DNA from: Candidatus Hermodarchaeota archaeon
GTDB taxonomy: Archaea; Asgardarchaeota; Hermodarchaeia; Hermodarchaeales; Hermodarchaeaceae
Assembly: GCA_016839365.1 (NCBI GenBank)
Contig: JAEOUH010000012.1
Location: 1-21,250, forward strand
Reading direction: 5' to 3'
Length of the DNA: 21,250 nucleotides
Positions within the stretch are counted from its first letter, which is position 1. Each line of letters starts with the position of its first letter. Under the pieces are notes generated by a model. The model was not told where the DNA came from. It saw only the letters and a program-made list of their open reading frames with translations, and searched no databases. A program made the translations under genes and the position numbers. Shown here one piece after another: positions 5,165-19,999 of this stretch.

Positions 5165-5680
5165 TTAGTAGCGACGACCACGGTCACGCCGGTCGCCACG
5201 GTCGCCACGGTCGCCACGGTCGCCACGGTCACCACGGTCACGCCGGTCGCCTCGCTGGTATCCACCGCCACCGCGTCCGCCAAAACTTCGTCGCCGATAT
5301 CGGGGCTGCTCGTGTTCTGCAGCCGACATATCGTTTTCGGCATCAACTTCTTCGATAGAATCCTCAGCTTCACTGATCTCTCCGTATCGACCGATGTTCA
5401 AACGAAGGTGGCCCTGAAAAAGGCTAGTATAGCCCTTTTCTAATCGGTAGGTTTTATCGACTTCGACGGCGTCAATGTTATCGTCCCAAAGGCTCAAGAG
5501 TACTGTTCCAGTTGCGTCACCTGCGGTTGCATCAAGCACACGGTGAGTTTCTCCGTCACGTCGGGATGTAACTTCGCGTTCTTCACCCTTTTCGATGACC
5601 TTGAAGGTGATGTTCAAACTTTTCATAAAAGGTCGCAATTCTGCGACTGTAGCCTCTACAGGCTCTCGATCATAGCTCAT
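5165..5680 (-). CDS. ssb: Crenarchaeal-type single OB-fold ssDNA/RNA-binding protein (SSB paralogue 1) with (RGD)n tail
   Basis: TVAELRPFMKSLNITFKVIE...GDATGTVLLSLWDD...GYTSLFQGHLRLNIG resembles Sulfolobus SSB. Start set at ATG 5680 (or GTG 5692) by comparison with the paralogue at 18921. Confidence 0.88.
   Translation of the reverse strand: MSYDREPVEATVAELRPFMKSLNITFKVIEKGEEREVTSRRDGETHRVLDATAGDATGTVLLSLWDDNIDAVEVDKTYRLEKGYTSLFQGHLRLNIGRYGEISEAEDSIEEVDAENDMSAAEHEQPRYRRRSFGGRGGGGYQRGDRRDRGDRGDRGDRGDRGDRRDRGRRY
5181..5252. repeat. 9-bp coding tandem repeat (8 units, CGGTCGCCA consensus)
   Basis: Units start at 5181, 5190, 5199, 5208, 5217, 5226, 5235 and 5244. They encode the RGD/RRD repeats on the minus strand. 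Confidence 0.9.
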
Positions 5681-5822
5681 TTTCGGTACCACGTTGCTTC
5701 GGTTACCAGGTTTCCAATACAAATCCTTCCTTGGGGTCTGCCGCAATGTGGGGTAGCCACAAGAGAATACGATTCGAAATATGGGACCTGCTTCTCTCCC
5801 CAAACCAACTCGACTATAAAAA
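5681..5822 (-). promoter_or_regulatory. TATA box plus ~110-nt conserved structured leader of SSB1
   Basis: TTTTTATA (5822-5815). Blocks GAATCGTAT (5775-5767), TTGGAAACCTG (5717-5707) and ACGTGGTACCGAAA (5694-5681) are shared with the SSB2 leader. Confidence 0.65.
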
Positions 5823-18780: not shown

Positions 18781-18920
18781 TTTTTATACTGGTATCCGAT
18801 TGGCAGGTATATCAGCGCCGAAACGTGAATCGTATCTGGGCTAGACTCTTGATTTGGTTGAGTCCCGAGTAACGTTCTCTTTTTGGAAGCCTGATTTGAG
18901 ATAGATACGTGGTACCGAAA
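18781..18920 (+). promoter_or_regulatory. TATA box plus ~108-nt conserved structured leader of SSB2
   Basis: TTTTTATA 18781-18788, GAATCGTAT 18827-18835, TTGGAAGCCTG 18883-18893, ACGTGGTACCGAAA 18907-18920. Confidence 0.65.
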
Positions 18921-19436
18921 ATGAGTTATGATCGAGAGCCTGTAGAGGCAACAGTCGCAGACTTGCGACCCAGTATGAAAAGTTTGAACATCACCTTCAA
19001 GGTCGTCGAAAAAGGCGAAGAACGCGAAGTCACCTCACGTCGTGATGGTGAAACCCACCGAGTATTAGATGCGGTAGCCGGTGACTCCACTGGCACAGTT
19101 GTACTTTCCCTTTGGGACGACATGATTGATACAGTCGAAGAAGACAAGAGTTATCGTTTGGAAAATGGCTACACCAGCCTCTTCCAAGGCCATCTCCGAT
19201 TGAACATCGGACGCTATGGTGAACTGAAAGACGCAGAAACAGAAATTGACGAAATCGACACGGATAACGATCTTTCTGCCGCTGAACACGAACGACCACC
19301 CCGTCGATCCTTTGGAGGATATGGCGGTGGTCGCAGCTACGGAGGCGGTGGCGGTGACCGTGGCGGTGGTGGTTATCGTCGCGGCGGCGGCGGCTCACGC
19401 CGTGGCAGCCGAGACCGTGGTCGTGGACGCTACTAA
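18921..19436 (+). CDS. ssb: Crenarchaeal-type single OB-fold SSB (paralogue 2) with RGG/YGG tail
   Basis: OB domain nearly identical to SSB1. Gly/Arg/Tyr-rich C-terminal tail. Alternative GTG start at 18909. Confidence 0.88.
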   Translation: MSYDREPVEATVADLRPSMKSLNITFKVVEKGEEREVTSRRDGETHRVLDAVAGDSTGTVVLSLWDDMIDTVEEDKSYRLENGYTSLFQGHLRLNIGRYGELKDAETEIDEIDTDNDLSAAEHERPPRRSFGGYGGGRSYGGGGGDRGGGGYRRGGGGSRRGSRDRGRGRY

Positions 19437-19528: not shown

Positions 19529-19999
19529 TTAGGCGGATTTTCGCTCGACCCGTGACCATTTGAAGCCTCGTGAACGTCGAGGGGGTTTGTTCTGACGAGT
19601 TTCAGATCCCATCATACGCTTGGACCCAGAGGAAGTAGAGCTAGCTTTTAATGATAGATTTTGTTCCCTATTGACTTCTTTGAAGATTTGGTCCGAAGGC
19701 TCAAGTCTTCCATTTCGTCCTAGACTAACTTGTAATTGTCCTTGGAAAAGCCCTGACTGTCCACTGATAATGCGAAAGGCTTTCCCATCTTCAATCAGTG
19801 AGATTTCATCATCCCAGAGTGTAAGGCGTAAGACGCCTGTTTCGTCTCCGATGAGTATATCGGCAACACGATGTTTGGAGCCGTCATGACGGCTTTGAAC
19901 ATTGCGAATAGTTCCAGTTTTTAGGGCCTTAAAGACGATTGTGAAGCCCTTTTGGTAAGGCTGAATGTTTGAAAGTTTTTGTGCATTGCTTGTTGACAA
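19529..19999 (-). CDS. Divergent single OB-fold SSB-like protein (paralogue 3), basic tail
   Basis: SRHDGSKHRVADILIGDETGVLRLTLWDD...GLFQGQLQVSLGR aligns with SSB1/2. TTG start. Confidence 0.8.
   Translation of the reverse strand: MSTSNAQKLSNIQPYQKGFTIVFKALKTGTIRNVQSRHDGSKHRVADILIGDETGVLRLTLWDDEISLIEDGKAFRIISGQSGLFQGQLQVSLGRNGRLEPSDQIFKEVNREQNLSLKASSTSSGSKRMMGSETRQNKPPRRSRGFKWSRVERKSA

Follow-up and report, generated by a model that had tools for sequence, protein, structure and literature searches.

What do two SSB genes of one Hermodarchaeota genome share between promoter and start codon, and what has kept it there? In the 21,250-nt stretch of DNA analysed here, referred to below as the window, SSB1 and SSB2 encode proteins that are 76% identical and that carry the OB fold PF21473 and an arginine/glycine-rich tail, with greatest similarity to Sulfolobus SSB and human SSB1 (hSSB1). 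For SSB1 the matches are Pfam PF21473 at 8e-11, Sulfolobus SSB 1o7i at 2.7e-14 and hSSB1 at 4e-13. The promoters, genes and leader elements are as follows.

5165..5680, (-) strand: SSB1 gene, 171 aa, Ssb-like OB fold and RGD/RRD-rich tail
18921..19436, (+) strand: SSB2 gene, 171 aa, same OB fold, RGG/YGG-rich tail
5815..5822, (-) strand: SSB1 promoter TATA box TTTTTATA, with GCC just 5', kept in all S1 orthologues
18781..18788, (+) strand: SSB2 promoter TATA box TTTTTATA, from the sequence and orthologues
5707..5790, (-) strand: SSB1 long hairpin HP1 (predicted fold), CAGGU (5790-5786) with ACCUG (5711-5707), then CCA/UGG inward
18811..18895, (+) strand: SSB2 long hairpin HP1 (predicted fold), closed by AUCAG (18811-18815) with CUGAU (18891-18895)
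5685..5707, (-) strand: SSB1 small hairpin HP2 (predicted fold), GGUA-A-CCG ... UGG-UACC
18896..18920, (+) strand: SSB2 A/U-rich linker with GUGGUACC box (18909-18916), from the sequence

Two promoters followed by collinear leaders

Exactly 24 nt after TTTTTATA, both strands carry a CAG (5790-5788 for SSB1, 18813-18815 for SSB2), and the two stretches then run through the same ordered blocks, GAATCGTAT, GGCTA, CCC.AG.AA.G, TTGGAARCCTG and ACGTGGTACCGAAA-ATG, to start codons at 5680 and 18921, with a TATA-to-ATG spacing of 134 nt in SSB1 and 132 nt in SSB2. This arrangement, which a preliminary description of the locus had taken for the mark of a structured leader, is confirmed in the sequence. 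By the usual archaeal geometry, transcription is predicted to start 23 nt past the TATA box, at an A at about 5792 for SSB1 and at A18811 for SSB2; the predicted SSB2 transcript begins AUCAG and would enter its closing helix at +1, and that of SSB1 at +3. Both stretches are probably the 5' untranslated leaders, of about 110 nt, of the ssb1 and ssb2 mRNAs, and are referred to as S1 and S2.

An in-frame TGA in S2 (18897), together with orthologue indels that are not multiples of three, shows that the leader is non-coding and eliminates an N-terminal extension or upstream ORF. A 212-aa frame of SSB1 that starts at a TTG was also discarded; it begins upstream of the predicted transcription start. 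A terminator scan finds no attenuator in either leader, where the U-tract is just four or five U.

Conservation between paralogues and across the genus

The two leaders are 67% identical overall, with identical blocks of 9-17 nt, whereas 56-64% of same-residue codons differ synonymously in the body of the S1 and S2 coding sequences. The blocks are thus conserved beyond the neutral divergence of the duplicates. In a whole-genome search, an S1 leader profile finds the S2 leader (E = 3.5e-4) and an S2 profile finds S1 (2.6e-3), with no other match to S1- or S2-type profiles in the 2.2-Mb genome, which is 84% complete; a structural model based on S2 finds only S2 genome-wide. The divergent paralogues SSB3 and G011:C25 are without the leader. 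SSB3, the third divergent paralogue in the window (19529-19999, (-) strand; 34% identical), is convergent with SSB2 and has no TATA-plus-leader of the SSB1/SSB2 type, and two more OB-fold relatives lie on contigs C75 and C37.

We find that the leader precedes S1/S2 orthologues in 14/14 genomes of the genus that have a match, and that 14 S1 and 12 S2 orthologues there keep its blocks; the sister genus, whose versions we denote Sa and Sb, has both the leader and the blocks. Each paralogue retains its own leader type in every species of the genus. Since both types persist across the genus and its sister, the duplication must be old and the blocks held by selection in each lineage, and comparison of the sequences places the duplication before both genus and family.

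These data bear directly on whether the blocks might be functionless, as leftover similarity or as a product of gene conversion between the duplicates. Such an origin would account for the near identity of S1 and S2 from the 3' end of the leader through codon 40; it is hard to reconcile with the age of the duplication and with one leader type per paralogue in every species, with fixed S1-v-S2 differences (GCT v GCA) embedded in that conserved stretch, or with a design common to orthologues that are 58-70% identical and past nucleotide-profile detection. The orthologue data largely refute this explanation, which we regard as barely credible.

Compensatory changes maintain a closing helix

In the predicted RNA, a 5' end of the form NNCAGGN pairs with NCCUGNN, which lies some 25 nt ahead of the ATG. 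Numbered from the predicted start, this closing helix comprises 5 bp from +1 in S2 and 5 bp from +3 in S1, where the two outermost pairs are mismatched (G-G or G-A). Covariation was assessed for 90 distinct leaders, in a MAFFT alignment that was not fitted to any structure, with 500 shuffles and slid controls. Changes on both sides of the helix occupy 65 cells compared with 33 in the shuffles, none of which (0/500) reaches as high, and the covariation score is 0.188 compared with 0.112 for shuffled alignments and at most 0.082 for the slid controls; the sequences are related, and kinship inflates these counts and shuffle statistics so that their significance is overstated. Covariation among orthologues, the check that the preliminary description had named, is thus found for the closing helix. 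Pair 3-133 is GC in 32 leaders, UA in 21, GU in 13 and AU in 4; pair 2-134 is UA in 20, AU in 18, GU in 4, GC in 3 and CG in 1; pair 8-128 is UA in 24, CG in 8 and UG in 6; and one leader replaces CAGG/CCUG with CAAG/CUUG. Several of these switches are independent events, and the closing helix is maintained by compensatory changes across lineages.

The constraint acts on the RNA strand, as judged from the G-U pairs and from a far lower score on the reverse strand: a structural model built on S2 (R1) scores the SSB2 leader at 88.7 bits and its reverse strand at 19 bits. This is relevant to the view that the blocks are transcription-factor operators downstream of the TATA box and that control is exerted on DNA. 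They do begin in the region of transcription start, where archaeal repressors commonly bind, and an initiator role for the invariant CA is conceivable. Yet arms that lie 85-100 bp apart keep their complementarity through compensatory changes and G-U pairs that are meaningless in duplex DNA, the structural model gives the reverse strand a much poorer score, and conservation spans the entire leader and about 120 nt of coding sequence, all of which makes an operator reading very improbable.

The interior is predicted to fold as an extended hairpin without fixed pairs

Inside the closing helix, single-sequence folding predicts one long, irregular, end-to-end hairpin for nearly every leader in every branch, and an extended hairpin is the interior fold that we infer. 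The pairings proposed in the preliminary description for the hairpin region are largely recovered in the MFE folds, namely CAGGU/ACCUG with CCA/UGG in S1, and AUCAG/CUGAU with CCGAAA/UUUUGG and an apical GACUC/GAGUC hairpin in S2, whose HP1 is predicted to form GAAU/GUUC as well. A GUGG/CCAC hairpin that it had also placed in S1 is unused in the fold and not conserved in orthologues.

The most informative comparison for the interior comes from related leaders of a second Asgard family, f6 (described below). In an alignment of 31 f6-type sequences, 84% of interior cells pair compared with 34-49% in slid controls, and 29 cells show both-sided changes compared with 12.5 in shuffles, which supports the long hairpin moderately well. 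Within Hermodarchaeota, interior changes are mostly one-sided. S1 and S2 share a GAAUCG block, whose partner is GAUUU in the former and GUUC in the latter, a shift of one register. What is conserved is the architecture, not the individual base pairs of the interior. The original proposal of a selected RNA structure is supported for the closing helix, which covaries, and is not borne out for the interior helices it had listed.

The gain in predicted stability is modest. All 31 of 31 Hermodarchaeota leaders are more stable than their own shuffles (mean z per group, -0.7 to -1.9); in the window the MFE z values are weak, at -1.1 to -1.4 for SSB1 and about -1.6 for SSB2 (copies range from -1.1 to -1.7). 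RNAalifold returns no pairs on the MAFFT alignment of all Hermodarchaeota leaders and only the closing helix on 95 leaders; MAFFT cannot align the variable interior.

Structural models extend detection to the sister genus. R1 scores an Sb leader at 35.8 bits compared with 19.1 bits for a sequence-only model, and it finds Sa leaders at their exact coordinates only when structure is included; it fails to retrieve S1 leaders above a noise floor of 9-11 bits. A second model, R3, built on f6-type leaders, scores f6 genomes at 25 and 17.5 bits and the Sb leader of the sister genus at 15.7 bits, and finds neither S1 nor S2 of the window above noise.

A U-tract and a purine-rich loop lie 5' of the CCUG strand in both leaders, as UUUUGG-AAG-CCUG opposite CCGAAA in S2 and UAUUGG-AA-ACCUG opposite CCA in S1. 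We find no K-turn or C/D box features on inspection and no RUGAUGA; that assignment was rejected, as the CUGA is Watson-Crick paired with UCAG and reads CUGC in f6-type leaders, with no Rfam match. No pseudoknot is evident on inspection of the leaders. Rfam gives no match at gathering score in the window and none in the leaders at E up to 10, which agrees with the earlier suggestion that the RNA is new.

A sub-optimal ribosome-binding box and a start codon predicted to be accessible

The canonical k-mers GGAGG, AGGTG and GGTGA are enriched 4.5-5.6-fold upstream of 1391 long ORFs, from which it follows that this Asgard genome (G000), with GGAGGUGA as its usual Shine-Dalgarno sequence, employs Shine-Dalgarno initiation widely; the MAG assembly has no 16S rRNA gene, and this usage is read from k-mer enrichment independently of an anti-Shine-Dalgarno sequence. 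In all Hermodarchaeota SSB leaders, GUGGUACC is fixed 4-6 nt before the AUG. By its sequence it is a non-canonical, sub-optimal Shine-Dalgarno-like box, with GUGGU as an apparently weakened GAGGU and with UACC also fixed. In SSB1 the box (5692-5685) forms part of HP2 at the Shine-Dalgarno position. This hairpin, GGUAACCG/UGGUACC, varies on one side alone (C to U opposite G) across 16 S1-type leaders, and no hairpin of the HP2 type is found in S2-type leaders, in Sa or in one Sb.

A pattern search locates GTGGTACC-N4-ATG in the S1 leader. Elsewhere in the genome, GTGGTACC-N3-6-ATG occurs at G000:C24:56739-56753, C31:11210-11223 and C83:10854-10867, which may be chance; a reversed-pattern control gives 1-2 matches per strand.

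Predicted accessibility, averaged over 90 leaders, shows positions -7 to +3 open, and at 37 C the AUG region is expected to be accessible. This observation weighs on two simpler accounts of the leader. The first is a purely constitutive element, in which a 5'-terminal hairpin guards an abundant mRNA from 5'-end-dependent decay and leaves the ribosome-binding site open, and nothing is sensed. It is consistent with a closing helix that starts 0-2 nt from the predicted start, with a strong promoter, with the accessible AUG window and with a hairpin interior that is free to vary. It leaves unexplained why the element occurs with one gene family and nowhere else in the genome, why the internal loop, the U-tract, the GAG.AAC box and GUGGUACC are conserved far beyond the needs of a generic protective stem, and why a sub-optimal Shine-Dalgarno-like box should be fixed, and we consider it unlikely.

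The second is an RNA thermometer of the cspA type, in which the leader alone would refold with temperature and gate translation or stability, with no protein involved. The family of the gene product includes a cold-shock protein (PMC10684826), the leader is long and adjoins the start codon, and S2 offers alternative pairings, first pointed out by an earlier reader, in that CCGAAA occurs twice and CGUAUCU can pair with AGAUACG. Only S2-type leaders have these alternatives, which S1, Sa and f6-type leaders do not conserve; the AUG is predicted to be open already at 37 C, and nothing matches the Rfam cspA model. A thermometer acting by itself is thus distinctly unlikely. As judged by eye, the S2-only CGUAUCU/AGAUACG pairing (18831-18837 v 18903-18909) can be formed through G-U wobbles in G014 and G007, and cannot be formed in G008 and G004.

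Constraint may extend into the coding sequence

Over the first 40 codons of S1 and S2 (5560-5680, (-) strand; 18921-19040, (+) strand), just 17-32% of same-residue codons differ (3/18, 6/19), compared with a synonymous difference of 56-64% later in the coding sequence. Fixed S1-vs-S2 differences, e.g., GCT v GCA, lie inside this suppressed stretch, and from their presence there the RNA-level constraint seems to extend into the coding sequence, as the comparison of the two genes suggests. Two candidate hairpins, both tentative, fall in this region.

5632..5647, (-) strand: candidate hairpin in the SSB1 coding sequence, GUCGCA-GAAU-UGCGAC, codons 12-17 (tentative)
18954..18969, (+) strand: candidate hairpin in the SSB2 coding sequence, GUCGCA-GACU-UGCGAC, +34 to +49 (tentative)

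The covariation count for the codon 12-17 hairpin among relatives is weak and register-ambiguous. In f6-type relatives this perfect 6-bp hairpin is represented by GGCU...AGCC instead, with Ala GCC accompanying Arg (A/C)GG and GCU accompanying Lys AAG. A second small predicted hairpin, GCCU-GU(A/U)G-AGGC at codons 6-10 (5652-5665, (-) strand; 18936-18949, (+) strand), is present in most relatives, and two synonymous GAG-to-GAA changes at this hairpin co-occur in several lineages.

A leader family in at least two Asgard families

Close SSB orthologues in species-representative genomes are found in 17/18 genomes of the window's own family (f1), in f32 and f3, and in roughly 80 genomes of f6, often in 2-6 copies each; they are absent from the other families sampled, e.g., 0/135 in f9. 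This f6 subfamily can reach 5-6 copies per genome, sometimes in tandem (G362:C89, G357:C45, G321:C28). In the f6 genomes G023 and G033, the leader is present in all four upstream regions read. Among 80 metagenome loci picked up by an OB-domain scan, every 58-82% identical orthologue with enough upstream sequence has the same leader design. Upstream regions of distant SSB orthologues (42-54% identity, in other Asgard families) could not be related to it. A pattern search with TTGGAAGCCTGA and two mismatches proved too loose to be useful.

The f6-type design consists of a TATA-like box and, about 24 nt on, (U)GCAGG, a variable interior, CUAGUUUUGA-N3-5-CCUGC(A), a small UCGC-loop-GCGA hairpin, a G(A/U)G(A/G)GUA box and the ATG. 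This uncatalogued, Thorarchaeota-like SSB leader is the nearest relative of those in the window: it precedes the same gene family at the same distance from the TATA box. Like S1 and S2, it has a 5'-terminal closing helix with a CAG...CUG core, whose second strand is a block 20-35 nt before the ATG; a UUUUG(R) tract, paired with a 5' strand of C(N)AAA type, and a short purine-rich internal loop (3-5 nt) before CCUG; a GA(G/A)GAAC box and the Shine-Dalgarno-like box G(A/U)G(A/G)GUA; and multi-copy genes that each carry a leader. In contrast, its sequence has diverged past profile detection, its closing helix is UGCAGG/CCUGCA where the window has AUCAG/CUGAU or CAGGU/ACCUG, and it measures about 125-135 nt compared with about 110 nt. 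The sole counterpart of its small UCGC/GCGA hairpin in the window is an analogue in S1, with nothing comparable in S2, and GUGGUACC is specific to Hermodarchaeota.

From these sequence comparisons, the element appears as the Hermodarchaeota branch of a leader family that is specific to one SSB gene family and present in at least two Asgard families. The window leaders are a divergent branch that shares the f6-type architecture, not proven members at the level of a model. The preliminary description, which spoke of two paralogues, was right about these and understated the scope.

Proposed function and mechanism

What might such a leader do? We consider, with a probability of roughly 0.6, that it is a gene-specific cis-regulatory 5' UTR that would control SSB level post-transcriptionally. 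Gene-specific control of this kind is what its restriction to one gene family, its conserved loop, U-tract and Shine-Dalgarno-like box, and a nucleic-acid-binding product together point to. In our literature searches, no account of a leader before Asgard SSB genes came up. To our knowledge, no gene-specific cis-regulatory RNA from Asgard archaea has been catalogued, and little is known of their post-transcriptional control.

Conservation, gene specificity, strand specificity and closing-helix covariation are demonstrated by the comparisons above and form the starting point for a model. The 5' bases of the RNA would pair with the CCUG(A) block about 85-90 nt downstream, so that nearly the whole leader is one irregular hairpin, followed by a short linker that holds the GUGGUACC box and an accessible AUG. 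The terminal helix would shield the 5' end, protect the mRNA and set the shape of the ribosome-binding region. Excess SSB could then bind, coat or melt the leader of its own mRNA, which would make that mRNA less stable or less well translated, and cold, by stabilising the helix, could lead to more SSB expression; every step of feedback and of cold response is inferred. If the leader is gene-specific, feedback by SSB itself is a serious possibility that we put at somewhat below even odds. The SSB product may act as an RNA chaperone. The SSB of Saccharolobus, a crenarchaeal counterpart, binds RNA and melts RNA duplexes, and is a dosage-sensitive cold-shock protein and RNA chaperone that becomes more abundant at low temperature; overexpressing it is toxic, and how it is regulated is left open (PMC10684826).

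Three known systems help to place this model. The first comprises the bacterial cold-shock 5' UTRs, among them that of S. aureus cspA, which is subject to autoregulation (PMC10684826). As in the SSB genes, a long conserved leader precedes a small gene for an OB-fold nucleic-acid chaperone, paralogues share the leader, and the product can melt RNA structure, so that feedback through its own leader is natural. Unlike them, the SSB leader is archaeal, with a TATA promoter and without a cold box; it has no similarity to them in sequence or model, and it is one end-to-end hairpin as opposed to the multi-helix cspA fold. The E. coli cspA 5' UTR is reportedly a thermosensor (Giuliodori 2010).

In the second system, gene 32 of phage T4, a translational operator is autoregulated by an ssDNA-binding protein, with a 5' pseudoknot as the nucleation site for cooperative binding and, after it, an unstructured A/U-rich tract that covers the ribosome-binding site. 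The SSB leaders resemble it in preceding a gene for an ssDNA/RNA-binding protein and in having a structured extreme 5' end, followed by a less structured, A/U-rich stretch to the start codon, which is seen only in S2 (18896-18920). They differ in that no pseudoknot was found, the sequences are unrelated and SSB of the type in the window is monomeric. We know of no sequence-specific binding by SSB proteins of the Sulfolobus type.

The third is the E. coli ompA leader, a 5'-terminal stabiliser stem-loop. As in the SSB genes, the stem begins only a few nt from the 5' end and precedes a gene with high expression, which for SSB is probable, but the SSB leader is much longer, is specific to a gene family and has conserved loops, and archaeal decay machinery differs. 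By analogy, then, the leader would be akin in its working to the cspA-family leaders or to the T4 gene 32 operator and a member of neither family.

A more far-reaching extension of the gene-specific reading, which is possible and which we hold to be doubtful, is that the leader is the sensor of a homeostatic circuit like that of cold shock, arisen independently of bacterial csp genes. In such a circuit, SSB would melt the 5'-terminal helix of its own mRNA, exposing the 5' end and the ribosome-binding region and causing down-regulation, and cold would lock this helix and boost SSB synthesis. If this were true, Asgard archaea would have their first described autoregulatory RNA of a gene-specific kind, and it would be of ancient standing in the lineage from which hSSB1/NABP-type proteins arose.

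The occurrence of the leader before every copy of a multi-copy SSB family, in two Asgard families, suggests that a shared circuit controls this probably abundant protein. It gives the question of how SSB of the Saccharolobus type is regulated a concrete RNA target, with the closing helix as a mutational handle.
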